From NCBI GenBank assembly GCA_947630415.1, contig CANRHM010000002.1:1-34546 (forward strand): DNA of 34,546 bases, in the 5' to 3' direction. A model generated the notes under the pieces. The model ran no database searches. It saw only the letters and a program-made list of their open reading frames with translations, and had not been told where the DNA came from. This DNA is from an uncultured Bacilli bacterium (GTDB lineage Bacteria > Bacillota_I > Bacilli_A > RF39 > UBA660). This document shows positions 7,731-33,993 of the stretch, in pieces (the first letter of the stretch is position 1; each line of letters opens with the position of its first letter). The position numbers and the translations under genes are program-made.

Positions 7731-7764
7731 GAAAATCAAAAAGAAAAGATGAGGGCTACTCATC
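7731..7764 (-). terminator. Intrinsic terminator closing the T4SS block
   Basis: The minus-strand RNA reads GAUGAG-UAGCC-CUCAUC (arms 7748-7753 / 7759-7764). The TAG stop of the coupling-protein gene sits in the loop, followed by UUUUCUUUUUGAUUUU. Confidence 0.55.
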
Positions 7765-9942
7765 CTCATCATCAAAAAAATCATCAAAGAAATTATCATC
7801 GTCTAAATCAACTTCTTTTGTACCCATTGGAACTTCATGAATAATTGGTTTTGTTTCTTCCTTAACTGGTTGAGCTGTAACTGCTTTCTTATCCTTCTTC
7901 TCTTGTTCTTTAGCTTTCGCTTCTGCTTCTTTTTCTTCTTGTTCAATTTGAGCAAGCTTTTCATCGATTCGTTTAACTAAGTCGTCAACATCGATACTTG
8001 GAGCAGCATTGTTATTAGGAAGTGGACTTGGTTTCGGTTCTACAAGAGGTTGTTCTCTTGGTGGAATTGGAACTCTTCCCATCGACTCAAACATAGGATT
8101 TCCAAAAGGTGATGGAGCTCTATCCATGCCTCCACTCATTGGTGAAAACATTGGAGGAACGCCTGCAAAACCACCAGGCATTCCGCTAGGCGCGGCATCT
8201 GGATTCTTATTGGCTTCTTCCATCATTTCAAATAATTTTTGTCTTTTCTTCTCTTTAACAAATTCACGAATATCAAAAGTATGAACTGGCTCTTTTTCAC
8301 GTTCAGGATACTCGGCCATTGGATACTTAGTACCAAAGTCTAATTTATAATAAGGTATAAATTTTGTTTTAAATGGTTGTTTACGTAAACGCAAAATAAT
8401 AACTTCATTCTCCTTCATACGTTGTAAATCACTTACCGTAACCAGTGGTGTAGAAGCCGTTTTATCATCTTTTTTAGATTTTACTTCTCCACACATCTTA
8501 CTAATTTCTTCCAAAGCTTTTAACTCAGTAGTAATCAAATAAATAATATTTCCACAGTTACCACGAATGGTTTCTGCATTTTCTTTTCCATAAACTTGGT
8601 CTAGCTGTGCAAAGTTCTGAATAATCATGGTAAAACGTATTCTTCTAGAACGGGCTGCCGTAATCATGGTCGTAACATCCTTTAATGGTGGCATGTTGGC
8701 AAACTCATCTAGTAAGAAGTTGGTTCTAACAGGAAGTTTTCCACCATGTTGTTGAGCCGTTGCAATTAACGTTTCATAGACTTGTTTTAATAAAATCGTA
8801 ACTAAAGAGTGATAGGTTTTCTTTTCATCTTGAATAACGATGAATAATGCCGTTGGTTTAGTTCCAATCGTCTCTAAATCAATATCGGTATGAGATAACA
8901 TCTCACTCAAGTTTTCGCGTGATGCAAACAATTTTATTTTTTGTTTAAATACGGCTAAGATACTACCTTTTGTTTCATTCGGTGCCATAATCGTACTCGA
9001 TGCATTAATAGCAGCAGCACTAGCAGGGTCTTTTCCTGCAAAATATTCCTTTACGTAAGTAGATCCACCAAATTTTTCTTCTCCAACCGTGGTCATTAAA
9101 CTGATGCTATTGATGTTTATTTCTTCTGGTTTAGCATCTTCAAAAAGTCCTAAAGCAATTCCTGAGAAGTAATCTGCAGAAGTTTTTTCCCAGAATGGAT
9201 CAGCATTTCCGTTATTTTCTTCATACAAAATATTTAAGGCTAAATCATCTAGTAATTCGATTGCTTTATCTTGATTTCCCGTACGATACATTTCATAGGG
9301 TAAAGTTAAAGGGTTCCAAGCATTACCATTTTGAGGGTCACGGAAGTTTAAAAGCAATATCTGATATCCACGATCTCTTAACAATTCAGAAGTTTTTTCG
9401 TAAATTTCACCTTTTGGGTCGGTAATAATCATCGATTCTTTTGCTTTTGCTAAACTTTGTACCGTAGGTAAAATACATGTCTGGGTTTTACCAGATCCAG
9501 TAGCACCGATTACTAAAGAATGGTACTCTCCATTATCTACCCACATTTCATTATCTTTAATAATAAGTGGAACTCCTGCAACCTTAGAATCCTTATCTTT
9601 TATACCAACACGTTCAAGTTCTGTTTTAATTTCTTTTTCTTTCGCCCAACGGCTATATCCTTTATCAGTCTTCTCCGTTGAAATCCCTATTCCTTTTTCC
9701 CGCTCAAAAAAGTAAGAACTAACACTCATGAAAAGAGCCGCTAAGGCAATGAGATAAAAGACAAGGGTTGTAAATAATAAATCACCTGAAAAAGCAGGAA
9801 GTGGATTCAATCCATAAAATCTACCTTCGTTAGCAAGCATCGGTAAGTTTAATACACCTAAAGCTACAACATAAAGTAAAAATATTGCAAACAAAACAAA
9901 GATTAAAATGTCTTGTGGTTCGGCCTTAAATTTTAATTTCAT
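7756..9942 (-). CDS. Type IV coupling protein (VirD4/TraG family)
   Basis: 728 aa. Two N-terminal TM helices, Walker A VIGATGSGKTQ, ITDPKGE, Walker B-like FLLDEFANMP and RSRRIRFTMIIQNFAQL. The C-terminus has a Pro/Gly/Met-rich and Lys/Glu-rich tail ending in DLDDDNFFDDFFDDEDE. ATGA overlap with the upstream gene. Confidence 0.9.
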   Translation of the reverse strand: MKLKFKAEPQDILIFVLFAIFLLYVVALGVLNLPMLANEGRFYGLNPLPAFSGDLLFTTLVFYLIALAALFMSVSSYFFEREKGIGISTEKTDKGYSRWAKEKEIKTELERVGIKDKDSKVAGVPLIIKDNEMWVDNGEYHSLVIGATGSGKTQTCILPTVQSLAKAKESMIITDPKGEIYEKTSELLRDRGYQILLLNFRDPQNGNAWNPLTLPYEMYRTGNQDKAIELLDDLALNILYEENNGNADPFWEKTSADYFSGIALGLFEDAKPEEININSISLMTTVGEEKFGGSTYVKEYFAGKDPASAAAINASSTIMAPNETKGSILAVFKQKIKLFASRENLSEMLSHTDIDLETIGTKPTALFIVIQDEKKTYHSLVTILLKQVYETLIATAQQHGGKLPVRTNFLLDEFANMPPLKDVTTMITAARSRRIRFTMIIQNFAQLDQVYGKENAETIRGNCGNIIYLITTELKALEEISKMCGEVKSKKDDKTASTPLVTVSDLQRMKENEVIILRLRKQPFKTKFIPYYKLDFGTKYPMAEYPEREKEPVHTFDIREFVKEKKRQKLFEMMEEANKNPDAAPSGMPGGFAGVPPMFSPMSGGMDRAPSPFGNPMFESMGRVPIPPREQPLVEPKPSPLPNNNAAPSIDVDDLVKRIDEKLAQIEQEEKEAEAKAKEQEKKDKKAVTAQPVKEETKPIIHEVPMGTKEVDLDDDNFFDDFFDDEDE

Positions 9943-10775
9943 GACTCCATCTCCTTACAGGTTTTAACTTGTTCATAGTGATCATTTTGATACAAATATA
10001 ATGTAGGACATATATTTAATTCGCCCATTGATTTATACTTGTTTAATACTATACCATACTTTTCTTCATTTGGTAACTTAATTATAGAAATAATTTGATG
10101 TGCCGTAATATTATCTTTTCGTTCTTCATTTTTAGGAACATAATCATTGCTTAACACTTGACTATTTTCTTCATCGTAATATAACACTATTTGAAATGAC
10201 CTTGTTTCTTCGGTTATTTCATCATAAGAATCATAAAGATTAGTAACTGCATAAAATGTTTCTTCTTTTCCATCTAAATCAAAATCAAAAGAAGTTTTTT
10301 CTACATAAGTAAAATTTGTATTTTGATCAAGCGTATATCCCTTTTCTTTAGTAAACTGATTTAAAATCTCATAATCCTTTTCTTCTAAAGTTTCAATTTT
10401 AGTATTTGCTACTTCGATGGAACCTGGACCAGTGTAGGCTACCATAGGATATTTTATAAAAGTAGCGCCCTTATTAGAAGGATACTTCCAAGTAGAATTT
10501 ATAAATTGTATTTTGGACTTAGTTACAAATTGATTTTGACTATAAATTTCAAATTCTTTTGTACGTAACAAGTCATTAATTTTATTTTGATCAATCACAT
10601 CGGTTATATTTCCGTTATCTATCTCCCAAATATTATTATCATATAGTAATAAATAAGCTTTATTTTCTTCTTGAATATGTTGATAAAGGAAAAAACCACC
10701 TAAAATAACAAGAATTAATACTGAAATGGAAACTAAAAAAACCGTAATTTTAATTTCTCTATTATATTTTTTCAT
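9939..10775 (-). CDS. Membrane-anchored extracytoplasmic protein (candidate VirB8/TcpC-like scaffold, unverified)
   Basis: 278 aa with a single N-terminal TM helix (ITVFLVSISVLILVILGGFFLY). AGGTGA SD. It sits between the wall hydrolase and the coupling protein. No motif recognised. Confidence 0.6.
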   Translation of the reverse strand: MKKYNREIKITVFLVSISVLILVILGGFFLYQHIQEENKAYLLLYDNNIWEIDNGNITDVIDQNKINDLLRTKEFEIYSQNQFVTKSKIQFINSTWKYPSNKGATFIKYPMVAYTGPGSIEVANTKIETLEEKDYEILNQFTKEKGYTLDQNTNFTYVEKTSFDFDLDGKEETFYAVTNLYDSYDEITEETRSFQIVLYYDEENSQVLSNDYVPKNEERKDNITAHQIISIIKLPNEEKYGIVLNKYKSMGELNICPTLYLYQNDHYEQVKTCKEMES

Positions 10776-10783: not shown

Positions 10784-12676
10784 CTACATACGCAATTCAT
10801 ATACTCGTATACCATAGATTCCACTATAAGTTGTTTGTGAAAGAGGTTTAATTGTTTCCGGAACACCTTCTCGAGCAACTGTATCACTAATCATAATTTC
10901 TCCATTTTCTATTCCCGTAAATGCTACCCAGTGCTCATTCTTAATAACTTTTATTACTAATAGATACCCTTCATTGGCAAGAGATAATACTTGTGAATAG
11001 CAATCACCTGCTGGACATTCGATACGATTGATATATTGAATTCCCGGTGCAACTTTACTTGCTACATCCCAGTAAATCATTCCACCTGACGAAAAGCCAC
11101 CATTCGCTTTCATTGCGGCAGCAAAAGATCCCGGATTAAAATCTCCATTTATAAAAGTTGAAGACGCTCCCGACATAGCAATTATTTTAGAAAGTGATGT
11201 CATAGCACACCCAATCTCGTAAATGGAAGTGTCAGGCGTACTACCTAATAAGAAACTTTGCCAAGGCTCGTGCTTTTGACTCCATGTAACCCAATCTCCT
11301 GCTACAACTCCTGGGAAAGGGGGCGTATTAACGTATAATCCTATTTCCGAAAAATCAAGTGGGAGATTTCCCATAATCGTTTCATATAATTCATAAATTT
11401 TTTCTACAATACGGAGTTGGTTTTCCTCACTTATTTCTCCATCATCTGTTTTAACTAAATAATCATAATATTTAGATATAAAACTATCTTCTGTTTCCAC
11501 TGGGAAGAAAAGAATATAATTAACCATAGGAGCCATCAAGCGATAATAATATAATCCTTCCCGATTATAGTTTACTGTGTATCGTATAGTTTTATAAGGT
11601 GCTTCAGAGCAACCATTAAAAAAATACTCATTTTTCTTATATACAGGTGCACTTCGTACATATGGACAAGTAAAATTAATAGTATTACTTCCTGGTGGAT
11701 CATTTACGATTCCCTTTTCACCCCATTGCGTAAATAAAAAGTTTTTATTGTGATCATATACATCTGTTGCACGTTTACAATCGTAACTATCTGTATCATT
11801 TTTACAATAATTTTGAACGCTTGTATAACTTTTTTGCAACGTACTATACGAATGTGAATTTTGATATTTCTTTATATATTTTGCACCATCATCTTCATAA
11901 GGACAACTTCCCGGTTCATCTTTATCACCATTGTAAGGAGTGACATAAGTGGCCTTTTGAACGGCTGCACCCGACATCGAATTATATTCTGATTTAGCTA
12001 ATTCAGGATAAGAGGTTGGGGTAATGCTACTACTAGCCGTATCTCCGCAACTGTAAGTACTTTCTGTTCTAAGAAGCATAAATCCAGCTAATGTCTTAAT
12101 ATATTTTTTTGCTTTTTTATTATATTCAGGATCATTAAACCAAGATGAAAAATTTTCAGCTGTAAGTGTATTGGTAGCAGTCTCACATTTTTCTCCATTT
12201 CCTTCAGCGTCACAAGCTTCACCAGTGTATCCTTCGTTCGTATAATCAGCATAAGTTCTACCATAGAAAAGCGTTGCTGTAATAAGCATAGGATTAATAG
12301 TTACTCCATAATCTTCCTTGTACTCCATAGTTACTTTATACAATTCTTCACAATATTCAATAGTTGTTTTACCTTCTTCTGAGTTTTCATCCTGAATATT
12401 GAAATCAATTAGACATTTTTCTTTTCTACCTTCTTTAGTAGTCATATCTGGTTCAGTATCTTCTTCATCAGGAGTAAAAAAATCTGTTACTTTATCCCAA
12501 GTAGATGCAAAAAAATTAGAAACTGCGACCGTTGGATAGGTTACAGTAATAAATGTAACTAAAATAATGGCAAAAATGGAAATAATGCCTGTACCAATTA
12601 AAAGAGCAACTATTGGATTTTTTTTGGCAAAATCTATTATCTTTCCCATTAAATTAAAGTCATTATTTTCATTCAT
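10784..12676 (-). CDS. Membrane-anchored cell-wall hydrolase with a C-terminal papain-fold (C39-like/CHAP/NlpC-P60 superfamily) domain
   Basis: 630 aa with an N-terminal TM helix. The C-terminal ~170 aa have a Cys...His arrangement (YEIGCAMTSLSKII ... NEHWVAFTGIENGEIMISD) typical of C39-like peptidases. 13 Cys. It lies immediately downstream of VirB4, as in Gram-positive T4SSs. Confidence 0.65.
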   Translation of the reverse strand: MNENNDFNLMGKIIDFAKKNPIVALLIGTGIISIFAIILVTFITVTYPTVAVSNFFASTWDKVTDFFTPDEEDTEPDMTTKEGRKEKCLIDFNIQDENSEEGKTTIEYCEELYKVTMEYKEDYGVTINPMLITATLFYGRTYADYTNEGYTGEACDAEGNGEKCETATNTLTAENFSSWFNDPEYNKKAKKYIKTLAGFMLLRTESTYSCGDTASSSITPTSYPELAKSEYNSMSGAAVQKATYVTPYNGDKDEPGSCPYEDDGAKYIKKYQNSHSYSTLQKSYTSVQNYCKNDTDSYDCKRATDVYDHNKNFLFTQWGEKGIVNDPPGSNTINFTCPYVRSAPVYKKNEYFFNGCSEAPYKTIRYTVNYNREGLYYYRLMAPMVNYILFFPVETEDSFISKYYDYLVKTDDGEISEENQLRIVEKIYELYETIMGNLPLDFSEIGLYVNTPPFPGVVAGDWVTWSQKHEPWQSFLLGSTPDTSIYEIGCAMTSLSKIIAMSGASSTFINGDFNPGSFAAAMKANGGFSSGGMIYWDVASKVAPGIQYINRIECPAGDCYSQVLSLANEGYLLVIKVIKNEHWVAFTGIENGEIMISDTVAREGVPETIKPLSQTTYSGIYGIRVYELRM

Positions 12677-14502: not shown

Positions 14503-15047
14503 GAAGACATCACCGTCCCAAATTCAGTGGTACTTCCACCATTTAAGAAATTATCTAGAATAATACGCATATCTTCATTACTTGTTTGTGAAGAAGATAA
14601 TCCACAAGAAGCAAGTCCATTAATCATTAAGCGTACTTTTTTCTGAAGTATTTCTAAATTTTTCTCTTTAAATAATAGGAAGTATTCCGTATCTACCACA
14701 TTATTACTTGTAAACGTATTCCCTTTTTGGATATCTTCATTAATTAATTTTCTAATCGCAGGATTCTGCGTATTGTTATAAAGAAGTTGCAATTGAGACA
14801 TATAAATTGAAATATCTACCGGTCTATCAGCAACTACTAACCAGAACTCAAAATCCAATTGGTTATAAAAGTTCTTTAAGGCAATCAAAATATTTTGTTG
14901 TGAATCTTCATCTAAGATAAAAATATTACGAGGAGTAATTTTTACTCCGCAAACTTTCATCTGTCCAGGAAGTAAAATCATTCCATTGTTAATTCCTTGT
15001 ACTGGGAGCCAATCTTCTGTGTATTTGCTTCTATTTGTCCTTGCCAT
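14499..15047 (-). CDS. VirB4 N-terminal domain encoded as a separate ORF
   Basis: 182 aa. DWLPVQGINNGMILLPGQMKVCGVKITPRNIFILDEDSQQNILIALKNFYNQLDFEFWLVVADRPVDIS resembles the N-terminal domain of PrgJ/TcpF/ConE-type VirB4. ATGA overlap with the 595-aa ORF. 182 + 595 aa is close to the usual VirB4 length. Confidence 0.6.
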   Translation of the reverse strand: MARTNRSKYTEDWLPVQGINNGMILLPGQMKVCGVKITPRNIFILDEDSQQNILIALKNFYNQLDFEFWLVVADRPVDISIYMSQLQLLYNNTQNPAIRKLINEDIQKGNTFTSNNVVDTEYFLLFKEKNLEILQKKVRLMINGLASCGLSSSQTSNEDMRIILDNFLNGGSTTEFGTVMSS

Positions 15048-15351
15048 CTAAATAACACCAACCTTTCCAATATAAACGTTGTCTTGTTGTTATAAACTCA
15101 TAGGTTTCCACTAATACATTCAAGACATTGTGATAGTATGGTACCGGCGCCACTAGCAAGCCACAGACAAGTGCTGGGGCAAGACAAGCAACGGCAACCA
15201 TGGTATTGGATAATAAATTTTGAAAAATCAAAATAGCAAAGAAGGTAATTCCAACACCGGTTCCAAAGATTCCTAAATCAATAGGACGGAACAATCCAAA
15301 TATCAGTGTACCCCTTTTCGTATTAGCAGGAATTAAGTAAGTACCATTCAT
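15031..15351 (-). CDS. PrgI/VirB3-like small membrane protein
   Basis: 106 aa. The N-terminal LIPANTKRGTLIFGLFRPIDLGIFGTGVGITFF is followed by two TM helices. It lies directly upstream of VirB4 and overlaps it by 17 nt. Confidence 0.6.
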   Translation of the reverse strand: MNGTYLIPANTKRGTLIFGLFRPIDLGIFGTGVGITFFAILIFQNLLSNTMVAVACLAPALVCGLLVAPVPYYHNVLNVLVETYEFITTRQRLYWKGWCYLDGKDK

Positions 15352-15383
15352 CTAGTATCACGCTCCTTTTTATTCTTTTAATT

Positions 15384-18277: not shown

Positions 18278-18307
18278 AATCCACCTCAGCAAAATTTCCC
18301 TAATAAC

Positions 18308-26437: not shown

Positions 26438-26878
26438 TTATTCTAGTTCATCCAAGACGTCTTCTACTCTACGCTCTTCTTCGTATTTCGTTTCGAGTAT
26501 GGCATCGATTTGGTTTTTAATTTGGAAACTTTCTCCCGCAAATACGACCGAAGTGGAAGATCCTACTTTAACGCTCACTTTTGGAGGTGTTTCATTGATA
26601 TCGTAAATACGAATATCGTAGTTACGATCGTTATTAACGTTTTCAGCAAAGCGACGAACGAAGCTTTCTACAAATTTTTCTTTGTCCATTCGAATTTCGC
26701 CACCCGATACTTGATAAAATCCATAATCGACCGCATCAAGCATGGCTGCTTCCGTCGTATCCTTTAATAAGTAGTAATCTAGTTCATTTCCTGAGGAGTA
26801 GTTTTGAATAATGTTGACCATTCCCAGTGTAAAAACCCCTAGTAAAATGATTCCGGTTAATAAAATACCTTTACTCAT
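26438..26878 (-). CDS. Membrane-anchored pseudopilin-like (TadE/TadF-like) protein
   Basis: 146 aa. MSKG-ILLTGIILLGVFTLGMVNII N-terminus (short leader, Gly, hydrophobic helix). 1-nt TAATG overlap with the 970-aa gene. Assigned mainly from position. Confidence 0.4.
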   Translation of the reverse strand: MSKGILLTGIILLGVFTLGMVNIIQNYSSGNELDYYLLKDTTEAAMLDAVDYGFYQVSGGEIRMDKEKFVESFVRRFAENVNNDRNYDIRIYDINETPPKVSVKVGSSTSVVFAGESFQIKNQIDAILETKYEEERRVEDVLDELE

Positions 26879-29790
26879 TATTGATTTCCTCCTCTCATAT
26901 CAACGTATTTACGTTCACATACATTTCCTTTTTGGTTGTTACATCCCACCATGCCTCGTTTTTTCAAATCCATATAATAACTGCTCGTTCCATTTACATC
27001 ATAATCACTATTGGCTCCACCATTTAGGAATTTACTTTGACATACGTTAATTCCTAATTTGGTATCACTATAACAATACATATCGTAATCTAAGTATTCA
27101 CCATTATGCTCACGGTTATATTGACGAATGGCATTGATGTTTTGTTTGGTTAAGACGATTTCGTAATCAAGTTCCTCGGATGGATCATTTTCTTGGTTAC
27201 TTGTTTCGTAAATCGTATCTCCTTTTCGAATGATTTCTAATCTCGTTTCATCCGGCATGATATTGTAACGCAAACTATTCGCTGAAGTTGTCCAGTTCCA
27301 TCTTGGGTTACGTCCAATATCTTGTTGTTCTTCTAAGAATGGTTGATTTAAGTTAATAGGACGATAGATATAAGTAAGTCCACACGTATCAATACAGTTT
27401 GCTTCTCCTGGTGCACAAGCAGTACATCCTGGATTTAAGTAGATACCCGTGTTATCTTTAATTCCATAGAAGCAATCTAAGTCGATGCTTGACCATTGTC
27501 CCCAAGAACCAAGTCCACTAAAGTTATAGTGAATATTTTGGGTAATTCCTTGAGAAGCAAAATTTCCATCTTTAATCGCTTCTTCACTGTTTGAAGTAAC
27601 CGTAGGCCACTTTTCATATAAGTTATAACCTAGGGCATTGATATTCGAATAGAACCTACGTCCCCCTTGATAATAATACTTAAGTAAATCAGGATTTACT
27701 TCAAATTGTTTTCTTCCATAACGGATATCGCCCACATTAATACTCGAAACATAAGATTCGTCTAAATAAAGTTTAATTTGACGTTTTACTTCATAACTTC
27801 TAACTTCTTTTTCTACTTGATAATGACCTGGTATTCCAATAGTTTCATTATGATTTTCGGTCATTTTTACTTCATAATCACGTGTTGTATTGTTTTCTGT
27901 ATAGTTTGTAACTTCTTTAATGACTGTCGTATCCGTTGCATCTTTATATTCAATGACTTTACCGGTATGAGAATCTACTACCGAAGCACTAAATTTTTCT
28001 GGATTTTCTTTGTCGAGAGATTCAAAAGACTCTGTCGTATATTGATTGATGGCATTTAATACATTTTGAAGTTCTGCTTCACTTTTTTCTACCTCTTTAC
28101 GATAAGCACTTTCTGGTGTTTCTGGAGGTATTACACAATTTGGACTCGTTACAAATACTTCGTAACAAAGTGTTGGATTGGTATTAGAGTTACAACCATC
28201 CAAGTAAGTAAAGGATATTCCATGTTCACTTACACAATAAGTATTCGTTGGACATCCATAGTTACTATCGGTTACATAACAACTAGAAATCGGTAATCTT
28301 GTTCGACCATAAGGTTTTCCTATTAATTCTGCACAAGTTTTATTACTTCCATGACTTAAATCTGTTGTTGAAACTGGTACTGCTTGAAGTGGATTAGCAC
28401 TAAGTGTCAATTTAGAAAAGAGTCCTTGTGTATTATAGATAGGTATATTGTTAGGATACGTCATCTTATAACATTGATCGATACAATCTTGGGTATATTT
28501 TCCACCATCGCAAGAAGCCACACATTGATCAAAGGATGATGTAGGTCCTGCTCCTGCTTGTCCTGTATGATTTGCAGGTCCTCCCCAACATTCAACAGAA
28601 TATGCACATTGTGGTTTATACTCAGGTTGTCTTAGTTGTACAGGTGTACAAGTACGAGTCATATTAATGACAGGGCTATAACTGAAACCTTGACCAGCAC
28701 TTAATCCTTTTGGTTGCTCGTAAGTGATTTCTAATTTTTCGGTACAAAGTGCACCCCAATATGTTCCTCCTACCCCTTCTAAAAATTGGGTATATTCTTG
28801 AGATGATGCCGTATGTTCACTGGTATTTGAATTTCTATTTTTATCGAAGTAGCATTGTAAATGGTCCTCTACTTTACCTGTGGATAAACGTGTTAAAATA
28901 TTTTTTGCACGATCAATATCTTCACGTACTTTTTGATCGGTATATTGGTCTACGTTAGACCAATTCATTTCTTCTTCAAAGCATTCACTGACTAAATTCG
29001 TAGCAATTCCTACTTTATCGGTTCCATTTACTTGGTTACGATAATCTTTACAAATTTGTTTATTATAAATAGGATTCGGAATGGAAGTGGAACCTGCTCC
29101 TTGAATATAACCCATGTAAGCTCCATTACAAGGATTTCCGCCACCCAAGCCTAGATAGAATGCAAGGAAATAGTCATCCCCCGGATTTACCCAAAACTGA
29201 ATGACCCCATCGTTGTTGGTAAGCCAATTGTTTCCCGGAAATTCATATACTTGACAATTTCCACTATCATCATAACTCGTACAAGTTTCACGATAAGCCG
29301 GTTGATTACCACTTGTATTTTGTTTTGTTACACGTTTAACACGATAACCTTCTGCTTTTTGAATCGTTACTTTCCACTGGCTACGAGAACTATCCCATAC
29401 TTGTGAAAAGTTTGCATTACTGTTTAGTTCATTCATAGGAGTTACCTTAGATATATCTTGTTCTAGTGGGCAAGAATAGAAAGTATATTTATCATCACCA
29501 ATATTTCCTTCTGTAATTCCGCAACTGATACCTAATGAAACCGCTTCAAAATAGTCCTCTTTTGGGCAGGTATTGGTATTTCCACCACTTTGATAACAAG
29601 AATTGATGATATCTCTTTGTGTAATTTTAGATAGTTGTACATTACTTCCTGCATTTTGAATGGTATAAATCATTCCTCCAACACAAACTTGTCCATCACT
29701 ATCTGTATTTTTAGCACTTACTAATAAAGGAAATAAAGCAAGAAGGAGACATACTCCCAATCCAATTATTTGCTTTTTTTGTTTATTCAT
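26878..29790 (-). CDS. Large secreted Cys-rich protein (candidate adhesin / pilus-associated)
   Basis: 970 aa. Sec signal peptide MNKQKKQIIGLGVCLLLALFPLLVSA|KN. By my count 36 Cys, 35 in the mature part, clustered in the N-terminal ~560 aa and C-terminal ~190 aa around a Cys-free central segment. AGGAGG SD. No LPXTG-type sorting signal and no C-terminal TM. Confidence 0.85.
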   Translation of the reverse strand: MNKQKKQIIGLGVCLLLALFPLLVSAKNTDSDGQVCVGGMIYTIQNAGSNVQLSKITQRDIINSCYQSGGNTNTCPKEDYFEAVSLGISCGITEGNIGDDKYTFYSCPLEQDISKVTPMNELNSNANFSQVWDSSRSQWKVTIQKAEGYRVKRVTKQNTSGNQPAYRETCTSYDDSGNCQVYEFPGNNWLTNNDGVIQFWVNPGDDYFLAFYLGLGGGNPCNGAYMGYIQGAGSTSIPNPIYNKQICKDYRNQVNGTDKVGIATNLVSECFEEEMNWSNVDQYTDQKVREDIDRAKNILTRLSTGKVEDHLQCYFDKNRNSNTSEHTASSQEYTQFLEGVGGTYWGALCTEKLEITYEQPKGLSAGQGFSYSPVINMTRTCTPVQLRQPEYKPQCAYSVECWGGPANHTGQAGAGPTSSFDQCVASCDGGKYTQDCIDQCYKMTYPNNIPIYNTQGLFSKLTLSANPLQAVPVSTTDLSHGSNKTCAELIGKPYGRTRLPISSCYVTDSNYGCPTNTYCVSEHGISFTYLDGCNSNTNPTLCYEVFVTSPNCVIPPETPESAYRKEVEKSEAELQNVLNAINQYTTESFESLDKENPEKFSASVVDSHTGKVIEYKDATDTTVIKEVTNYTENNTTRDYEVKMTENHNETIGIPGHYQVEKEVRSYEVKRQIKLYLDESYVSSINVGDIRYGRKQFEVNPDLLKYYYQGGRRFYSNINALGYNLYEKWPTVTSNSEEAIKDGNFASQGITQNIHYNFSGLGSWGQWSSIDLDCFYGIKDNTGIYLNPGCTACAPGEANCIDTCGLTYIYRPINLNQPFLEEQQDIGRNPRWNWTTSANSLRYNIMPDETRLEIIRKGDTIYETSNQENDPSEELDYEIVLTKQNINAIRQYNREHNGEYLDYDMYCYSDTKLGINVCQSKFLNGGANSDYDVNGTSSYYMDLKKRGMVGCNNQKGNVCERKYVDMRGGNQ

Positions 29791-29807: not shown

Positions 29808-30557
29808 TTACTTGATTATATCATAGTTTGCCGTTGTTTGAACAGCATATTTTTCTACTTCTTCATTTTCTCTTAATTTACGGGCATCAATTCTAAATTG
29901 TGTTCTTCCTTCAAGTCCAAAGTATCTTGTACAAGTAATAAGAGAGATAAGCGTATCTTGTTCATTTACTTCTATATTATATCGATATAAACTGTTGTCG
30001 ATGGCGGTCTGGATATAATTTTGCGTCTCACTCAAAGAGGTCGTCGTATCTCCTTTTTCATTATCTTCTACAAAACCAACGGCATAGATAAGATAAAGTT
30101 CATCTTTTCCATCATGGGTATATTGGATATATAAGTTGTCTTTCGCAAAGTCGTAATAAACAAAGCTCATAAGTTGTTCAAAACGAACATGATTTTCGTC
30201 GGCAATAAGTGGTTCACTAGAAACGTTTTGAATATTGTGTCCATAGATGGCTAAACGGTTTTCCCCTTCTCCTGGACGATGTGCTACCCAAGTGTAATCA
30301 ATACCACTTCGATAGGCTTGAGGCGTTTCATAAATGATAGGATAATCGATATTCGTACCTTGTACCCTAATCCAACCAACGGAATTGACGTTGGCAACTT
30401 TGGTATCACTTACTTGTTCAACTCTGGAATCAATGGCGTATTTTACAAAAGTGGATCCCATTTTTTGATTGGAAACGTAAATGATTACGAATCCTATTAC
30501 CGCAAGTATTAACAATAAGGTGATTTGCCCATAGGCATTTTTACTTTTCTTTTTCAT
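29808..30557 (-). CDS. srtB: Class B sortase
   Basis: 249 aa. N-terminal TM anchor, VGWIRVQGTNIDYPIIY, catalytic-His motif AIYGHN, catalytic-Cys motif LISLITCT and a downstream Arg (FRIDARKL). Confidence 0.8.
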   Translation of the reverse strand: MKKKSKNAYGQITLLLILAVIGFVIIYVSNQKMGSTFVKYAIDSRVEQVSDTKVANVNSVGWIRVQGTNIDYPIIYETPQAYRSGIDYTWVAHRPGEGENRLAIYGHNIQNVSSEPLIADENHVRFEQLMSFVYYDFAKDNLYIQYTHDGKDELYLIYAVGFVEDNEKGDTTTSLSETQNYIQTAIDNSLYRYNIEVNEQDTLISLITCTRYFGLEGRTQFRIDARKLRENEEVEKYAVQTTANYDIIK

Positions 30558-30569: not shown

Positions 30570-32420
30570 TTACTTTATATAATATGGACTAGTAACCGTT
30601 CCTTGTCCACTTGAAATACGTGCATTTTTACTAATGTAGATAACGGCTTTTATAGCATTGTTTTTAAAATCCTCAAGGGATACATCAAAGGCAATTCCAT
30701 TTCTTGAGTTGACCATAAAGAAATGATTCTCTTTATTAATTACATCCATTAAGTAGTAATTGATTCCCATGAATAAGTTATTGCTGTTTACTCCTGAGAA
30801 TAAGTCATAACTACTTGGAATTGAAAATCTTGCTCTAAATGTTTCAGTATTATATTCATCGTATTTTTTTCCTTCTTCATAGTAAGGTCTTGTAAATTCA
30901 TGTTCGATTAATAAGTTATCAGCTACATAATTTCCTAGTTCATTATTTAAAATGTAACCTAAGTTGCCTTCTACTAAAGGATTGAATTTACGAATTCTAT
31001 CTTCATCTTGATAGGTAGCAGTTAACTCTTTTCCAGTAGAACTATTGGTAAGCGTTCCTGCTCCTATAAGTTTAATATTTCCTTCTTCATCAAAACCACT
31101 GATGCGGAAGAATTGTCCGGAATAGTTTACGTATTCTCCGATATAACGAGTATTTAAGTAGTCATTATCTCTTCCAAACGTATAATCATCTAATTTATAA
31201 GGCTTTTCACCGGAGCCATCACCATCCATGACATAAAGATTTTCGGTTTTTAAATTGATGACTGGACGAACGCCTGCTAAATTTTGATTAGCAAAATCGC
31301 TTATTCTACTATTTCCATAATTATAGTAGATAAAACTGTTGGTTTCGTTTTTCTTATCAAGTAACCAGTAACTTCCCATTTGGTATAAGTAAGAAGTATT
31401 CTTGCTATCGATGGATGCTAATAATTCATTCATGGAAAGCATTCCAACAGGAAGGGCATTCGAATAACTATCACATTCTTTCATCTGTCCTAAAGAAGTT
31501 GTATTTTCACACCAAGTGCTATCTTGTTTAACATATTGACTGGCATTTTTAAGTGCTTGATAAAAAGTATTGTTCAACCATTTTGCCAAATTAGAGTTTT
31601 CAAAGTTCTCTCCTTCGTTTCGGTAAGGCATATTCGCTACATTATCGTCTAATATGAGTTTAATACTGTTATCATCGTTTACCTTGATAATCCGCCAAAG
31701 CATGCCAGAGAATAATATGTAGTTATTGGCATTTTCACCTTTGTAGGTATTGCTTTCATCGGTTGCCGATTTAATTTCATCGACGATATTGCGAACGACA
31801 TACACATCTCTTGTTACATCGCTTCGGTTATGCATTTTATCATAGACCGTATAACGCACTTTATATGATCCTATTTTTTTGGTATTAACATTAGAGGAAT
31901 CAATAAGCACTTTGCTCACATCAATATCTTGGTCATGATCATCTTTGATGCTTTCCACACCTAATTCTTGATATCCACTATTAATGGTTAGATAGTAAGG
32001 ATCATCTCCTTTTAAAGTGATGACTGGTCCTTCATGATCCACATTGGATTGATATTTTCCACAGGATAAGTAAGTGTAGTAACGGTATTCTTCTCCTTCT
32101 TTAAATACTCTAACCCATGAGTCGAGCGAACAAGTATCGTTTTCTTTAGGAATCATCAACTTCTCGATTCGCTCTAAGTCGTTTAATTCTTTTAAAGTAA
32201 CCGAGACCATTTCTCCATCTTTTTTAGGAAGTCTTGATGGATACTGAAAGTAATAATATTCGGCGGCCTCTTGGAATTTCTTTTCTTCTTGTCTAAAGAG
32301 AAAGTATCCTTCAATAAAAAGAGCATAAATCAAATACAAAAGAAGAAGACTTGCACCTAAAATGGCTAGAATTAAAGCTAATCTTTTTTTCTTTTTAACT
32401 TCCGCTGGTTGCATTTTCAT
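30570..32420 (-). CDS. Membrane-anchored multidomain surface protein (pilin-like head, Ig-like domain, two repeated modules)
   Basis: 616 aa. N-terminal TM helix, YYYFQYPSRLPKKDGE...YRYYTYLSCG, an Ig-like segment (GPVITLKGDDPYYLTINSGYQELG...GSYKVRYTVYDKMHNRSDVTRDVYVV), then two modules each with W/FRI..., VRPVINL / AVIYISK and G.G[ST]...PY.[IL]. Strong AAGGAGG SD. Confidence 0.8.
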   Translation of the reverse strand: MKMQPAEVKKKKRLALILAILGASLLLLYLIYALFIEGYFLFRQEEKKFQEAAEYYYFQYPSRLPKKDGEMVSVTLKELNDLERIEKLMIPKENDTCSLDSWVRVFKEGEEYRYYTYLSCGKYQSNVDHEGPVITLKGDDPYYLTINSGYQELGVESIKDDHDQDIDVSKVLIDSSNVNTKKIGSYKVRYTVYDKMHNRSDVTRDVYVVRNIVDEIKSATDESNTYKGENANNYILFSGMLWRIIKVNDDNSIKLILDDNVANMPYRNEGENFENSNLAKWLNNTFYQALKNASQYVKQDSTWCENTTSLGQMKECDSYSNALPVGMLSMNELLASIDSKNTSYLYQMGSYWLLDKKNETNSFIYYNYGNSRISDFANQNLAGVRPVINLKTENLYVMDGDGSGEKPYKLDDYTFGRDNDYLNTRYIGEYVNYSGQFFRISGFDEEGNIKLIGAGTLTNSSTGKELTATYQDEDRIRKFNPLVEGNLGYILNNELGNYVADNLLIEHEFTRPYYEEGKKYDEYNTETFRARFSIPSSYDLFSGVNSNNLFMGINYYLMDVINKENHFFMVNSRNGIAFDVSLEDFKNNAIKAVIYISKNARISSGQGTVTSPYYIK

Positions 32421-33993
32421 TTCCTCCTTTTAAGAAATATTCATACGTTTTATCGCGAACAACAAACTTAAACGCAACATCGGTCGCATTCATGACTTCT
32501 TTAGGTACTAGCAAATAAACATATTTTCCTTTCCAATCTCTCGATAATGGTAAGGAAAAAGTGGATTCTTTTTTGACTTGGTCGATGGTATAAACAAGTT
32601 TGGCTTGTTTGGCTAAGAAACTACTTAAAGATAAACCGGTCGTATCTTCACTAAAGTTAAGTCGTAAGATGCTTTTATTTCCACTATAGTTTGAAGCTTT
32701 TATTTTACCTTCATAAACTTTGCAATCCCACACATAGCAACTGGTGTATAAGTAAGAAGCTTCGTCCATGACTTGATAGTTGTAAAAAGAAACCGTTTTC
32801 TTGGTTGTATCATAGAACTCTAAATCCATCGCTGTATTGAGGTATGCTAAAGAGGTTTCAGTAGAAGATGAAAGATCGGTCAAATTGGTATGAATAAGAC
32901 GTAGTTTTAAATCGTTGGATCCTCTTATTTCTTGATAGTAAAGTGTATATTTAGAACCAAAATCGATGGGTTTTATTTCATAGATTAACAACATGGAATT
33001 GGTAACGCCTGGTGCAAGGGTTTGGTTCTGGTAGCCTTTTCCTAAATCCGTGAAGTATTGGTCATGACTTTGAATCGGCACATAGTAATTATGATTTGCT
33101 GTAATGATAAACTTCTTGGTATCCAAAGTTAGATTTTGATTAGTGACATTTTTTATAGATAAATCGAGGATTATATATTTTCTTCCTTCTTGGTTGATTA
33201 CATTTCCCGCATAGTCTTTATCAGTAAAGTACATCTTATTAATCTTTAACTCATAGGAATTAGCCCGGAAGGTTTGTCCCATCTTATAAGTTCTATTCTC
33301 AACAAAAATTTGGTGGTAGAGAAAGTAACTTCCTCCTAGAAAAAGGACTAAGGCAATGGTTAAGCAAATGCCTTGGTGTTCTAGTACTACGTATTTGATA
33401 CGACGGAACCGGTTCTTAACGACCCTTTTAACTTGATAAGGATCAAGTCCTACCGATACTTCGACTTCTTCTCTATCTTCTTCGTTAATATCTAAGTACT
33501 CTTCGTCTTCCCTAAAACCAAACTTTTTTAAATCGAGTCCTAAGAAACGAACGAGCAAAATCACTAAAATCGCATATTGTGGAATACTCACAATAAACAA
33601 GAAATCTCGTATTAATAACGTTTGTTGTAGATTAATGGCATCAAACCCAATATGATTAAAATAAGAACTAGCATAAATAAACGTGATCATTACAAGGAAA
33701 TATTCTAATAAGATAAGTCCATAGACCACGACTGGTTTCTTTTTATAATAAAGTAAGAAAATTAAAACAAGGCAAATGGCAAAAATAGCCACAATACAAG
33801 TAAAAAACAAAAAAGAAGTATATTCGGACATCGGAGTAGCAATAGGGTTATAGTATTTCGTATCCAAATAATTCCTTACCATATCTTGAAAGGCTAAATT
33901 TCGAAAGAGCACATAAGTAGAAAGAAGGAATAGAAGAAAATTGATTTTTTGGAAATGCTTAATTAGAAAAGCATAGGGTTTTCTAAAAATCAT
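32395..33993 (-). CDS. Polytopic membrane protein with an extracytoplasmic beta-rich C-terminal half (possibly DUF4352-like)
   Basis: 532 aa. About 5 TM segments in aa 1-160, an acidic loop, a further TM at about aa 200-225, then YELKINKMYFTDKD...GRKYIILDLSIKNVTNQNLTLDTKKFII. AGGAGGG SD. First gene of the block. Confidence 0.75.
   Translation of the reverse strand: MIFRKPYAFLIKHFQKINFLLFLLSTYVLFRNLAFQDMVRNYLDTKYYNPIATPMSEYTSFLFFTCIVAIFAICLVLIFLLYYKKKPVVVYGLILLEYFLVMITFIYASSYFNHIGFDAINLQQTLLIRDFLFIVSIPQYAILVILLVRFLGLDLKKFGFREDEEYLDINEEDREEVEVSVGLDPYQVKRVVKNRFRRIKYVVLEHQGICLTIALVLFLGGSYFLYHQIFVENRTYKMGQTFRANSYELKINKMYFTDKDYAGNVINQEGRKYIILDLSIKNVTNQNLTLDTKKFIITANHNYYVPIQSHDQYFTDLGKGYQNQTLAPGVTNSMLLIYEIKPIDFGSKYTLYYQEIRGSNDLKLRLIHTNLTDLSSSTETSLAYLNTAMDLEFYDTTKKTVSFYNYQVMDEASYLYTSCYVWDCKVYEGKIKASNYSGNKSILRLNFSEDTTGLSLSSFLAKQAKLVYTIDQVKKESTFSLPLSRDWKGKYVYLLVPKEVMNATDVAFKFVVRDKTYEYFLKGGNENATSGS

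Follow-up and report, generated by a model that had tools for sequence, protein, structure and literature searches.

The locus described in this work has relatives in the experimentally studied conjugation operons of two plasmids, pLS20 of Bacillus and pZB18 of E. faecium. The pLS20 family was defined by Val-Calvo et al. 2021, who named its ATPase 'VirB11', treated the neighbouring genes as unknown, and reported that no pilus homologues exist (PMC8557374). In Clostridia, DUF5411 proteins co-occur with CpaF and PilC/GspF (PMC9523054). Here we analyzed a stretch of 34,546 nucleotides (the window) from an uncultured Bacilli bacterium, in which a preliminary description had recognized a Tad-type pilus module joined to a type IV secretion system (T4SS); components of both types are indeed present in the block.

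Results

Organization of the block

The 23 co-oriented minus-strand ORFs previously reported at 7756-33993 are all present and intact, 98% of the span is coding, and Shine-Dalgarno-like sequences precede most of the ORFs. All the genes described below lie on this strand. The ATGA overlaps at 9939-9942 and 14499-14502, and the TAATG overlaps at 23479-23483 and 26876-26880, were confirmed exactly; the spacing of 1-26 nt given earlier holds for the overlaps but not for all the gaps, since intergenic distances range from -26 to +108 nt and five gaps measure 70-108 nt. The flanking genes, which encode a rhodanese, RmuC and a thioredoxin, are ordinary chromosomal genes, and the block ends, as proposed, at a terminator-like hairpin (7745..7767, minus strand) that has a 9-bp stem followed by a T-run and overlaps the VirD4 stop codon. 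Within the block, a promoter-like site (TTGACA-17-TATGAT; 20812..20871, minus strand) lies upstream of a VirB2-like gene and overlaps a perfect inverted repeat of 15 bp, a palindrome found only in the window and in its closest relative (L001). A second promoter-like site is located at 18308-18335, near the T4SS_pilin gene at 17207..18292.

The Tad-like module

The DUF5411 protein (146 aa; 26438..26878; Pfam E 1.4e-51) has a pseudopilin-like N-terminus, in which a hydrophobic helix follows a conserved 'M-N/S-K-G' leader. It precedes a CpaB/RcpC-like protein of 276 aa (25589..26419) with a single predicted N-terminal TM helix, which matches TIGR03177 pilus_cpaB over residues 18-212 (E 3.9e-9) and Pfam RcpC with E 2.4e-6, at 27.9 bits against a cut-off of 28.8. 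The next gene encodes a CpaF/TadA-type secretion ATPase (394 aa; 24389..25573; Pfam T2SSE E 2e-26) with more than 7,500 homologues (72-97% identity in the top 120); among solved structures CpaF is its best match (72 bits), ahead of FlaI (65) and VirB11 (59).

Two polytopic proteins follow, a TadB-like protein of 297 aa (23481..24374; 72% median identity across species) and a TadC-like protein of 258 aa (22705..23481; 70% median identity), whose gene shares a TAATG overlap with the one upstream. The former has no profile match, distant relatives included; the only domain-level Foldseek matches of its AF2 model (pLDDT 79) are to the cytoplasmic domains of the T2SS platform proteins EpsF (2vmb; probability 0.82, TM-target 0.64) and OutF (5nbg; probability 0.63), both with E above 1. 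The family HMM of the latter matches pLS20 p39, and profile searches gave no T2SSF match. Membership of both proteins in T2SSF, undetectable by any sequence profile tried, is suggested by the Foldseek match with E above 1.

A small pilin-like protein of 58 aa (22447..22623) has one TM helix, a near-invariant N-terminus ('MK[EA]ATGELN[ML]TV[VI]T..IAI.A') and a variable C-terminus in more than 70 loci. It is devoid of the Flp G/XXXXEY motif, a point against a Tad-like filament. The pseudopilin-like protein of 170 aa (21914..22426) has a hydrophobic helix behind a leader, 'M[RK][DE]A[IFV]GG', that is conserved. In a pooled scan of 82 members of three small-protein families (this protein, the 58-aa pilin and a 106-aa protein described below), two members weakly match archaeal Pilin_N, with a best E of 0.01. 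The TadZ-like protein (342 aa; 20867..21895), with a receiver-like N-domain and a degenerate ParA/MinD domain, has no sequence-profile match; its AF2 model (pLDDT 75) aligns over both domains with the top Foldseek match, 3fkq (E 1.1e-4, probability 0.99), the two-domain TadZ of E. rectale, and matches to ParA, MinD and BcsQ are confined to the C-domain. No prepilin peptidase is encoded in the locus, which is another point against such a filament. The CpaB profile, an ATPase closest to CpaF, the similarity of the TadZ-like model to 3FKQ, an EpsF/OutF-like domain and the prepilin-like leaders conserved on three proteins of the block largely support the Tad reading.

Surface proteins and hypervariable cassettes

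The first gene of the block (32395..33993) encodes a polytopic membrane protein of 532 aa with an extracellular DUF4352 domain (Pfam E 1e-7) and four predicted TM helices; of 80 related loci, 70 contain a homologue, with around 33% identity. It is followed by a 616-aa surface protein (30570..32420) with an N-terminal TM/signal anchor, a bacterial Ig-like domain (Bact_surface_Ig-like, E 3.6e-13) and DUF6273 (E 2.5e-7), which is part of hypervariable cassette 3 and is only 66% identical to the closest relative, in which neighbouring genes are 94-99% identical. The product of the next gene (249 aa; 29808..30557), previously called sortase B, is a sortase-like transpeptidase with a visible LITC motif and a Pfam Sortase match (E 3e-4); its class B assignment (TIGR03064, E 9e-13) scores far below the cut-off. 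This gene is also hypervariable (58% identity to the closest relative), and no LPXTG-type sorting signal was found across the block proteins. Cassette 3 also includes a large secreted Cys-rich protein (970 aa; 26878..29790) with a signal-anchor-like N-terminus and no Pfam or NCBIfam match, for which 74 of the 80 related loci contain a homologue (median identity 30%; 54% for the closest relative).

Another DUF6273 surface protein (19261..20355; E 6.8e-7) has an N-terminal TM helix and a C-terminus ('..DPYLIK') similar to that of the 616-aa protein. It was listed as a 420-aa ORF starting at a TTG (19261-20523); the true start is most likely the ATG at 20355, which predicts a protein of about 364 aa, because a 364-aa homologue in L001 matches. 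Cassette 2 includes a lipoprotein-like protein of 260 aa (18401..19183) with a Pro/Thr-rich linker, no family match in profile searches, and 61% identity to the closest relative. The exposed parts of the block are hypervariable: they show 26-39% identity across species, and the three surface-gene cassettes differ even among near-identical genomes, with 45-73% nucleotide identity to the closest relative against a background of 90-95%.

The T4SS half

A VirB2-like pilin of 119 aa (20426..20785; Pfam T4SS_pilin E 2.3e-4), predicted as a two-TM hairpin, is kept even in loci without the T4SS half. The first gene of this half (17207..18292) encodes a secreted protein of 361 aa with a C-terminal VirB2-like hairpin (T4SS_pilin, residues 273-340, E 4.2e-8) and 47% identity to the closest relative; relatives have two to four hairpin genes of this kind. 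Next are a VirB6-like channel protein (597 aa; 15384..17177; TrbL_4 E 2e-5, NCBIfam pLS20_p028 E 3.5e-6) with five predicted TM helices, and the 106-aa protein (15031..15351), conserved in 58 loci. The earlier VirB3/PrgI-like call for the latter was not confirmed and is based on its position directly upstream of VirB4 and its two TM helices; profile evidence is limited to weak TcpE matches in the pooled scan (3 of 82 members, best E 0.014), for which the output does not name the matching members.

VirB4 is encoded by two ORFs joined by an ATGA overlap. The N-terminal domain (182 aa; 14499..15047) covers VirB4_plasma positions 101-276 (E 6.5e-15) and its homologues carry the TraC-like domain PF26593; the ATPase (595 aa; 12715..14502) matches VirB4_plasma, a family from Mycoplasma ICEs (E 3.7e-107; 359 bits, cut-off 590), the CD1110 family (168 bits), and Pfam AAA_10 and P-loop_TraG. 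This split is conserved in 59 loci and therefore is not a frameshift.

The product of 10784..12676 (630 aa, cassette 1) is a bitopic protein in the slot of the cell-wall hydrolase. It had been described as such an enzyme, but it has no family or PDB match, and hydrolase domains are found only in its positional counterparts: CHAP (L086), SpoIID (L087), M23 (L093), and glucosaminidase plus CHAP (L094). Its last 180 aa are similar to the C-terminal end of the L087 counterpart (E 6e-11). The adjacent bitopic protein (278 aa; 9939..10775), also in cassette 1, occupies a VirB8-type slot, has one N-terminal TM helix, no family match in profile searches, and 59% identity to the closest relative. The last gene (7756..9942) encodes a VirD4-type coupling protein of 728 aa (T4SS-DNA_transf E 3.7e-59, TraG-D_C, TrwB_AAD_bind) with an acidic C-terminal tail ('..DLDDDNFFDDFFDDEDE') and more than 7,500 homologues (65-97% identity in the top 120). 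The T4SS reading is upheld by these profile matches to the split VirB4, VirD4, VirB6 and two VirB2-like pilins.

Distribution and conservation

At least 583 species-level genomes from uncultured gut Bacilli carry the locus on the chromosome. Synteny in related genomes, a check proposed in the preliminary description, showed a conserved flanking gene order: the downstream neighbours rhodanese, RmuC, DUF3603 and TrpRS are shared by genomes with only 75-76% TrpRS identity. The motor proteins are conserved to the same degree as TrpRS (median identities of 76% for the ATPase, 83% for VirB4 and around 73% for VirD4, versus 75-80%), and are under purifying selection. The block is a chromosomally fixed trait with the distribution of a vertically inherited one.

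Discussion

We give somewhat better than even credence to the view that the 23 genes specify a single cell-surface machine, chromosomally fixed and inherited vertically, that belongs to the pLS20 class of Gram-positive T4SSs. Its upstream half would be a Tad-like filament module, with a CpaF-type ATPase, two platform-like proteins, a TadZ-like organiser and a CpaB-like protein; the candidate filament subunits are the 58-aa pilin and the two pseudopilin-like proteins with short prepilin-type leaders, and adhesin-like surface proteins and a sortase-like enzyme would be added to it. The downstream half would form a translocation channel from the VirB2-like hairpins, VirB6, the VirB3-like protein and the split VirB4, together with the protein in the wall-remodelling slot and VirD4 as substrate receptor. 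We infer that the cell uses its filament and adhesins to attach to a second cell and stay attached, and that the channel, powered by VirB4 and VirD4, then moves a cytoplasmic macromolecule into this second cell.

Several other explanations bear on this proposal. A conventional ICE is contradicted by the same chromosomal neighbours across diverged genomes, and neither flanking direct repeats (att) nor tRNA genes were found; neither the window nor the flanks read in relatives, at most 10 kb per side, showed a relaxase, an integrase or att repeats, which according to the preliminary description would indicate an ICE. Profile searches agree with its statement that no relaxase-, recombinase-, replication-initiator- or HTH-like protein was recognised among the 23 products. 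A regulator, oriT-associated genes, SSB and primase were likewise not found in the window or these flanks. For this reason, DNA transfer is unsupported by the locus itself. The block may still serve pilus-assisted conjugation with a relaxase encoded elsewhere, or it may be a relaxase-independent system for protein or DNA delivery.

It is also conceivable that the two halves work separately: in some species (L003-5, L007, L009, L016) the T4SS half is missing from the site while the Tad-like half is retained, and promoter-like and terminator-like sites are present inside the block. Where the downstream sequence is long enough (67 species-level loci), the T4SS genes directly follow the Tad-like half in 62 cases. 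On the whole, a vertically inherited, contact-dependent transfer machine is the most likely function. Its cargo is probably DNA, because all characterised relatives of the gene set are conjugation systems; in that case, the genes for DNA processing would lie at another place in the genome, or processing would be non-canonical.

The comparison of sequences and gene order indicates that the block is homologous to the pLS20 and pZB18 operons, both of which present the same composite order: DUF5411, a CpaF-type ATPase, two membrane proteins, small pilin-like proteins, VirB2-like, and VirD4/VirB6/VirB3/VirB4. The idea of a novel fusion first met here is rejected on this basis. The arrangement thus belongs in part to an already described family, in that the order was known, whereas a Tad-like reading of the pLS20 module was not found in the accessible literature. 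A difference is that the composite of pLS20 and pZB18 is accompanied by a relaxase, and none was found near the chromosomal block. In pLS20, gene 36 encodes a DUF5411 protein (E 1.4e-5) directly upstream of the ATPase p37, the counterpart of the block ATPase (family HMM, 177 bits); the closest solved relative of p37 itself is CpaF (91 bits versus 64 for VirB11). Weak hhalign matches pair p38 with the TadB-like protein (collinear, E 0.024) and p40 with the 170-aa pseudopilin-like protein (E 0.0036), and p39 matches the TadC-like family (HMM E 1.9e-6; hhalign E 0.0013, 135 collinear columns). Like the VirB2-like protein of the block, p45 matches T4SS_pilin (32 bits, above the cut-off), and it is followed by VirD4, VirB6, DUF5592 and VirB4; the block VirD4 and VirB6-like family HMMs match p48 (E 5e-60) and p49 (E 4e-9), respectively. 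In uncultured gut Bacilli, the known pLS20-type layout is fixed on the chromosome in hundreds of species.

Organization of the block and its flanks

The co-orientation reported in the preliminary description was corroborated: 23 ORFs are present on the minus strand, they run from 33993 down to 7756 and cover 98% of this span, and most of them are preceded by Shine-Dalgarno-like sequences. The intergenic gaps range from -26 to +108 nt, and the overlaps noted earlier are exact, i.e. ATGA at 9939-9942 and 14499-14502, and TAATG at 23479-23483 and 26876-26880. A terminator-like hairpin (7745-7767) overlaps the stop codon of the VirD4 gene. One more ORF, of 135 aa (15323-15730), lies in a different frame over the 3' end of the VirB6-like gene; it is most likely spurious and was left out of the gene count.

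The left flank carries the genes encoding rhodanese, RmuC, a DUF2238 protein, a DUF3603 protein and TrpRS, and the right flank a thioredoxin gene. The VirD4 and rhodanese genes are separated by 35 bp in the window; in two more distant relatives, the loci L086 (12289-13515) and L087 (12206-13432), a conserved 408-aa membrane protein of no family is encoded between them, and this protein is absent from the window. Beside TrpRS, the window (1099-4554) encodes two proteins, one of 946 aa with an HD domain and one of 201 aa, and the same place in a 97%-identical relative (locus L088, 14911-19521) is occupied by a 1536-aa protein of the FtsK/SpoIIIE family (EssC-like); this region is a variable island adjoining the conserved locus. 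A PADLOC search of the left-flank genes gave weak Cas3-HD matches and nothing more useful, and an Rfam scan of the window identified no riboswitch or other RNA.

Composition of the T4SS half

The VirD4 assignment (7756-9942) is unambiguous, given that the protein matches T4SS-DNA_transf (E 4e-59), TraG-D_C and TrwB_AAD_bind. Its C-terminus is a strongly acidic tail with Phe (..DLDDDNFFDDFFDDEDE), reminiscent of the tails with which coupling proteins dock substrates or adaptors.

VirB4 is encoded by two ORFs within 12715-15047, one for an N-domain of 182 aa and one for an ATPase of 595 aa, which overlap at an ATGA and cover positions 101-276 and 294-893 of the Mycoplasma-ICE VirB4 model, respectively. 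The 595-aa protein reaches 359 bits with VirB4_plasma (cut-off 590) and, with the Firmicutes family CD1110, 168 bits; membership in VirB4_plasma was rejected, and this is only the nearest named family. The two-ORF arrangement is kept in 59 related loci, so the split is natural and not a frameshift. The conjugative plasmid pLS20 of Bacillus subtilis also has a 192-aa ORF directly ahead of its 633-aa VirB4; homology of this ORF to the VirB4 N-domain of the window was not detectable.

The VirB6-like component, of 597 aa, was recognized by TrbL_4 and by the VirB6 family pLS20_p028. The VirB2-like T4SS_pilin hairpin is present in two proteins, the product of 20426-20785 and the C-terminus of that of 17207-18292, and the relatives have two to four T4SS_pilin genes per locus. 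A perfect 15-bp inverted repeat (20839-20871; AATAACAATTGACAA-CAT-TTGTCAATTGTTATT) overlaps the stop codon of the TadZ-like gene and abuts a strong promoter-like sequence, TTGACA-17-TATGAT, ahead of the first of these VirB2-like genes; it could be an operator or a terminator, and apart from the window only L001, a locus of the closest relative, has it.

Two further assignments fared less well. The slot and the two TM helices of a 106-aa protein agree with its description as VirB3-like; on the profile side, a Pfam scan that pooled the VirB3-like, pseudopilin-like and pilin families, and whose output does not identify the matching members, gave weak TcpE and archaeal Pilin_N matches and nothing else. 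No hydrolase domain could be demonstrated in the 630-aa protein (10784-12676) that had been described as a wall hydrolase. Its counterparts in the same slot in relatives carry CHAP, SpoIID, M23 or glucosaminidase plus CHAP domains; in Gram-positive T4SSs the slot for a wall hydrolase typically varies.

Evidence for a Tad-like module

The evidence for the Tad-like nature of the upstream half is mixed, and good when combined. The CpaB/RcpC-like protein matches TIGR03177 (E 3.9e-9, 36 bits against a cut-off of 71 bits) and Pfam RcpC (E 2.4e-6, 27.9 bits against a cut-off of 28.8), so that both E-values are significant and both scores fall short of the curated cut-offs. Compared with solved structures, the ATPase (24389-25573) scores higher with CpaF (72 bits) than with FlaI (65) and VirB11 (59); in NCBIfam the result is ambiguous, with VirB11 at 115 bits, TadA-conjugal at 96 and TrbB at 91, all of them under their cut-offs. 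At the sequence level the protein is best placed among the assembly ATPases of the TadA/CpaF clade.

Sequence profiles of the 342-aa TadZ-like protein (20867-21895) gave no match in the PDB or Pfam. A Foldseek search with its AlphaFold model (pLDDT 75) returned as top match 3fkq from Eubacterium rectale (E 1.1e-4, probability 0.99), with both domains aligned; the structures of ParA, MinD and BcsQ aligned to the C-terminal domain only. As modelled, the protein would have the receiver-like domain and the atypical ParA/MinD domain of TadZ/CpaE. We take 3fkq to be the structure of TadZ. Given that TadZ is specific to Tad systems, this match is the most discriminating result. The paper on the TadZ structure is reference 47 of PMC6668835.

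The two polytopic proteins encoded 3' of the ATPase, of 297 aa (23481-24374) and 258 aa (22705-23481), have the size, position and topology of TadB and TadC. Neither is recognized as T2SSF by any profile, and Pfam scans of relatives with 22-33% identity, collected by an exhaustive HMMER search, likewise gave no T2SSF match; the families searched as profiles against PDB sequences gave nothing, and hhalign gave no convincing paralogy between them. The only domain-level Foldseek matches of the TadB-like model (pLDDT 79) were EpsF (probability 0.82, TM-target 0.64) and OutF, both with E >1, and the matched parts are the cytoplasmic domains of these T2SS platform proteins.

Three conserved leaders, each followed by a hydrophobic helix, were identified: 'MK[EA]ATG' in the 58-aa pilin (22447-22623), 'M[RK][DE]A.GG' in the 170-aa pseudopilin-like protein (21914-22426) and 'M[NS]KG' in the DUF5411 protein; their sequence pattern is that of prepilin-type signal peptides. 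The N-terminus of the 58-aa pilin, 'MK[EA]ATG/ELN[ML]TV', is conserved; the G/XXXXEY motif of Flp is absent from it, with no EY at +5/+6. No prepilin peptidase (TadV/CpaA) was found in the window or in the flanks of its relatives (up to 10 kb on either side), and its gene may be located elsewhere in the genome. DUF5411 adjoins CpaF and PilC/GspF in a predicted pilus/secretion operon of gut Clostridia (PMC9523054).

The same composite order in pLS20-class plasmids

Among plasmids, the ATPase has its best matches in the pLS20 family (33% identity, E 1e-40), and Enterococcus plasmids come next. In pLS20, the ATPase is encoded by gene 37 ("putative VirB11"), which is preceded by the genes for an adhesin and for p36 and followed by those of the membrane proteins p38 and p39, of small single-TM proteins (genes 40 and 41), and then by gene 45, VirD4 (48), VirB6 (49), a DUF5592 protein, the 192-aa protein, VirB4 (52), VirB8 (53), VirB1 (54) and the relaxase (58). 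HMMs of the families, constructed from the related loci, matched p37 (177 bits) and p39 (E 2e-6), and, by the same approach, the T4SS proteins p48 (E 5e-60), p49 (E 4e-9) and p52 (E 6e-37). The hhalign matches between the TadB-like protein and p38, DUF5411 and p36, and the 170-aa protein and p40 were weak and collinear. In Pfam, p36 matches DUF5411 (E 1.4e-5) and p45 matches T4SS_pilin over the cut-off; compared with solved structures, p37 scores higher with CpaF (91 bits) than with VirB11 (64 bits). The gene order is the same in pZB18 of Enterococcus faecium, in which a TrbC/VirB2 protein is annotated, and pAW63 carries a "VirB11" (PMC9673590).

The fusion is therefore not peculiar to the window; since pZB18 and pLS20 share this order in their conjugation operons, the composite is a signature of a Gram-positive conjugation class. 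The architecture itself is already known, i.e. that of the pLS20-class Gram-positive T4SS. What is new here is a chromosomal and lineage-wide version, without relaxase, regulators or exclusion genes, with better-preserved Tad features and with hypervariable surface cassettes. In the paper that defined the pLS20 family, genes 36 and 38-47 are given as unknown and pilus homologues are stated to be absent (PMC8557374), so the Tad-like reading of this module seems, from an incomplete literature search, not to have been recognized there. The same search found nothing relevant on RF39 together with secretion or pili.

Distribution and vertical inheritance

The ATPase and VirD4 have more than 7,500 database homologues each; the best 120 of these are 65-97% identical and come nearly all from gut metagenomes and "Bacilli bacterium" MAGs. 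A scan with one genome per species placed relatives of the locus in at least 583 genomes, and the 80 retrieved from these are all uncultured MAGs classified as "Bacilli", "Tenericutes", Candidatus Scybalousia, Onthousia or Faecimonas, obtained from human and animal guts. We take the carrier lineage to be the RF39 clade or its neighbours.

Sequence of 8 kb or more past the ATPase on its downstream side is available for 67 loci. In 62 of these the T4SS genes directly follow the Tad-like half; of the remaining five, three run into DUF3603/TrpRS and two are rearranged or expanded. The order VirD4, rhodanese, RmuC, DUF3603 and TrpRS is kept even where TrpRS is just 75-76% identical to that of the window. 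The median identities to the window are 83% for VirB4, 76% for the ATPase, 72% for the TadB-like protein, 70% for the TadC-like protein and about 73% for VirD4, and TrpRS lies at 75-80%. Given that the identities of the motors equal that of TrpRS, we conclude that the locus is vertically inherited under strong purifying selection, and is not an ICE.

Six loci (L003-L005, L007, L009 and L016) have no T4SS half; they retain the Tad-like half together with its VirB2-like and DUF6273 genes, after which they continue with YuzI, DUF3603 and TrpRS. The rhodanese and RmuC genes are also missing at this site, and since both genes are absent along with the T4SS half, the change is not a precise excision. 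In another related locus, L025, everything from the small pilin through VirD4 has apparently been lost.

The content of the block is that of a conjugation operon, and its GC content (about 0.34) is slightly above that of the left flank (about 0.30); both would fit a conventional ICE or an integrated plasmid whose relaxase, integrase and att sites lie just beyond the window. As described earlier, relaxases, recombinases, replication initiators and HTH proteins are not recognizable among the 23 products; Pfam and NCBIfam gave no match to any such family. The sequence beyond the window was read in 97%-identical relatives, and up to 10 kb past either end of the block in relatives only housekeeping-type genes are present, with no relaxase or integrase. 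Searches by tblastn with the relaxase, TOPRIM protein, integrase and SSB of pLS20 gave nothing in 1.76 Mb of related loci, in which pLS20 VirB4 gave 58 matches. In the window there are no tRNA genes, and the direct repeats in the flanks are at chance level, with no att-like pairs. The locus lacks the integrase or recombinase, the att repeats and the variable presence at a conserved target that define an ICE; its insertion context is unchanged in genomes about 75% identical in housekeeping proteins, and the divergence of its motors tracks that of TrpRS. The flanks of the relatives and the synteny across deep divergence contradict the presence of mobility genes just outside, and the ICE reading, which we consider extremely improbable, is largely refuted and essentially excluded.

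Hypervariable cassettes and surface proteins

When the window was compared with its closest relative, GCA_947623935.1 (loci L001 and L088), the nucleotide identity of the block and its flanks was mostly 90-95%, and it fell to 45-73% in three sharply bounded cassettes. The first (about 10.0-12.7 kb) encodes the proteins of 278 and 630 aa, the second (about 15.4-19.2 kb) VirB6, a lipoprotein and the 361-aa protein with the pilin domain, and the third (about 27.3-32.0 kb) a 970-aa protein, the sortase-like enzyme and an Ig-like protein. The cassette proteins are 47-66% identical between the two genomes, against 94-99.5% for their neighbours, and the products of the cassette genes are all predicted to be exposed outside the membrane. 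This sequence pattern points to diversifying selection or allele exchange, probably acting on the contact surface of the machine, and partner recognition, exclusion, or escape from phages or host immunity would fit it.

The DUF6273 surface proteins encoded at 19261-20355 and 30570-32420 have similar C-termini ('..EDPYLIK' and '..TSPYYIK'), and no LPXTG-type sorting signal was found in any protein of the block. In the related locus L045 (15735-18223), four tandem paralogous ORFs of about 200 aa and two larger ones are inserted 3' of the VirB2-like gene, before the expected T4SS genes; this insertion is an expanded variable region.

Possible function of the locus

The gene set is homologous to proven conjugation operons and fixed in the chromosome, with motors under purifying selection and exposed parts that diverge fast. 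From this we infer an apparatus in which the CpaF-type ATPase, the TadB/C-like platform, the TadZ-like organizer and the CpaB-like protein would build a filament of the 58-aa pilin and the pseudopilins; this filament, together with the large surface proteins, would bring about cell contact. A channel across the membrane and the wall would be formed by VirB4, VirB6 and the VirB2- and VirB3-like proteins, assisted by the protein in the hydrolase slot, and VirD4 would choose the substrate. We regard DNA as the default substrate, given that the characterized relatives all move DNA and VirD4 has been retained; the locus itself offers no DNA-processing function. We tentatively propose that a plasmid-type conjugation machine with a Tad-like pilus has been domesticated, without a canonical relaxase, as a core chromosomal organelle of an entire order-level group of uncultured, genome-reduced gut Bacilli, a reading that we regard as possible rather than probable. 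If it is true, the organelle could serve in DNA exchange from chromosome to chromosome, or in the acquisition of macromolecules from partner cells or their delivery, and the three cassettes would be determinants of partner specificity or mating type. As a corollary, the pLS20 class would build a Tad-type filament, which would overturn the view that Gram-positive conjugation proceeds without pili.

The two halves could instead be independent neighbours that share no mechanism, a Tad-like adhesion pilus for mucus, host cells or microbes and a separate T4SS. In the six T4SS-less loci the Tad-like half leads into DUF3603/TrpRS with no T4SS genes, the genes that start at 20785 and 18292 are preceded by promoter-like sites, VirB4 is followed by a terminator-like hairpin, and the operons of Clostridia with DUF5411, CpaF and PilC/GspF have no reported T4SS genes alongside (PMC9523054). 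All of this would fit two systems; however, the halves are adjacent in nearly all the informative species loci (62/67), both gene sets are interleaved in the single conjugation operons of pLS20 and pZB18, and a VirB2-like pilin gene lies inside the Tad-like half and stays there when the T4SS half is absent, so that we consider this separation rather unlikely.

The nature of the substrate leaves room for two other readings. The machine could deliver proteins in a contact-dependent interaction, independently of a relaxase, by which auxotrophs with reduced genomes exploit or antagonize their neighbours, as in the killing T4SS of Xanthomonas or the contact machinery of epibiotic bacteria. The lack of DNA-processing genes near the locus in any genome examined, a conserved VirD4 whose acidic tail is of the kind that typically docks substrates or adaptors, and exposed parts as variable as expected of partner recognition or an arms race are in favour of this; so would be the reduced genomes and many auxotrophies of RF39 members (PMC6784871), if our assumed assignment of the lineage holds. 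Nevertheless, no candidate effector-immunity pairs or toxin domains were identified in the block, and the characterized relatives (pLS20, pZB18, pAW63 and the Mycoplasma ICEs) are all DNA conjugation systems. Moreover, to our knowledge the delivery of protein effectors through a Gram-positive T4SS is not well established, and protein delivery seems to us a fairly improbable function. It could also be proposed that the locus takes up DNA, like ComB of Helicobacter or the archaeal Ced/Ted systems, with the filament capturing DNA as in Micrococcus luteus. VirB4 weakly matches CedD, the locus is fixed in the chromosome of auxotrophs for which DNA would be both a nutrient and a source of genes, and in some organisms Tad-type pili and T4SS-derived machines are each used in this way (in part PMC6668835). 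Against uptake, VirD4 is highly conserved, coupling proteins move cytoplasmic substrates outward, and no ComEC- or ComEA-like gene is present in the locus. ComB and Ced, as far as we know, have no VirD4 coupling protein, and a competence function is in our opinion quite improbable.

These results bear on how Gram-positive conjugation systems find and hold their recipients. Given that the CpaB- and TadZ-like parts are recognizable in the better-preserved relative carried by the window, the Tad-like nature of the "VirB11" module of pLS20 becomes visible, and a Tad-like reading of pLS20-class conjugation can be tested in a genetically tractable system. A chromosomal T4SS in at least 583 gut species is unusual, with motors as conserved as a tRNA synthetase, hypervariable surfaces and no relaxase nearby, and it raises the question of what use an order of uncultured, genome-reduced gut bacteria makes of a conserved T4SS. 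The locus may be central to the cell interactions or the DNA exchange of these auxotrophic bacteria, and such a role could bear on their cultivation.

Comparison with known systems

With the Tad/Flp systems (type IVc; Cpa of Caulobacter, Tad of Aggregatibacter and of E. rectale) the window shares a CpaF-type ATPase directly followed by two polytopic proteins of platform size, CpaB/RcpC-like and TadZ-like proteins, pseudopilin-like proteins and a pilin about 50 aa long. Unlike these systems, it has no G/XXXXEY motif, no TadV/CpaA in the locus and no T2SSF profile match, its CpaB-like protein scores under the cut-offs, and the module is embedded in a T4SS operon. The operon predicted by Miller et al. 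(2022) in Roseburia, Ruminococcus and Eubacterium is also found in gut Firmicutes and has DUF5411 beside a CpaF-type ATPase and a platform protein; in contrast to the window, it includes 8-9 genes, no T4SS components have been reported in it, and its platform protein is recognizable as PilC/GspF. The thin pilus of R64 (IncI1) shares the concept of a type IV pilus beside a conjugative T4SS that supports mating in liquid, and pLS20 also mates best in liquid (PMC11730352). Nevertheless, the R64 pilus is of type IVb, belongs to a diderm host and has no detectable orthology to the module of the window, and the likeness is an analogy only.

The best-scoring family of the window VirB4 is that of the Mycoplasma ICE T4SS (VirB4_plasma/Mbov_0397), and the two VirB2-like proteins weakly match the Mycoplasma pilin-like proteins Mbov_0395 and MMCAP2_0566. 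Mycoplasma ICEs are likewise not known to have a canonical relaxase; they are mobile by means of a DDE transposase, and no CpaF-type ATPase module is known from them.

The pLS20 class shares with the window, in one operon, an adhesin, DUF5411, the CpaF-type ("VirB11") ATPase, two polytopic membrane proteins, small single-TM proteins and a VirB2-like T4SS_pilin, and downstream VirD4, a VirB6 of the pLS20_p028 type, a small protein in the VirB3 slot, VirB4 with an ORF of about 190 aa directly ahead of it, and a wall hydrolase; homology was demonstrated for the ATPase, the TadC-like protein and p39, VirD4, VirB4, VirB6, DUF5411 and T4SS_pilin. Sequence identity is low, for instance the 33% of the ATPase. 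In contrast, pLS20 is a plasmid that encodes its own relaxase (gene 58), has an oriT and shows Rco/Rap/Phr regulation and surface exclusion, whereas the locus of the window is chromosomal, is not part of a transmissible replicon, and has no relaxase, oriT, auxiliary DNA-processing genes or regulatory genes. VirD4 precedes VirB6 in pLS20 and is the last gene of the window locus, which adds to the pLS20 plan a sortase-like enzyme and recognizable counterparts of CpaB and TadZ, and whose surface proteins are much larger.
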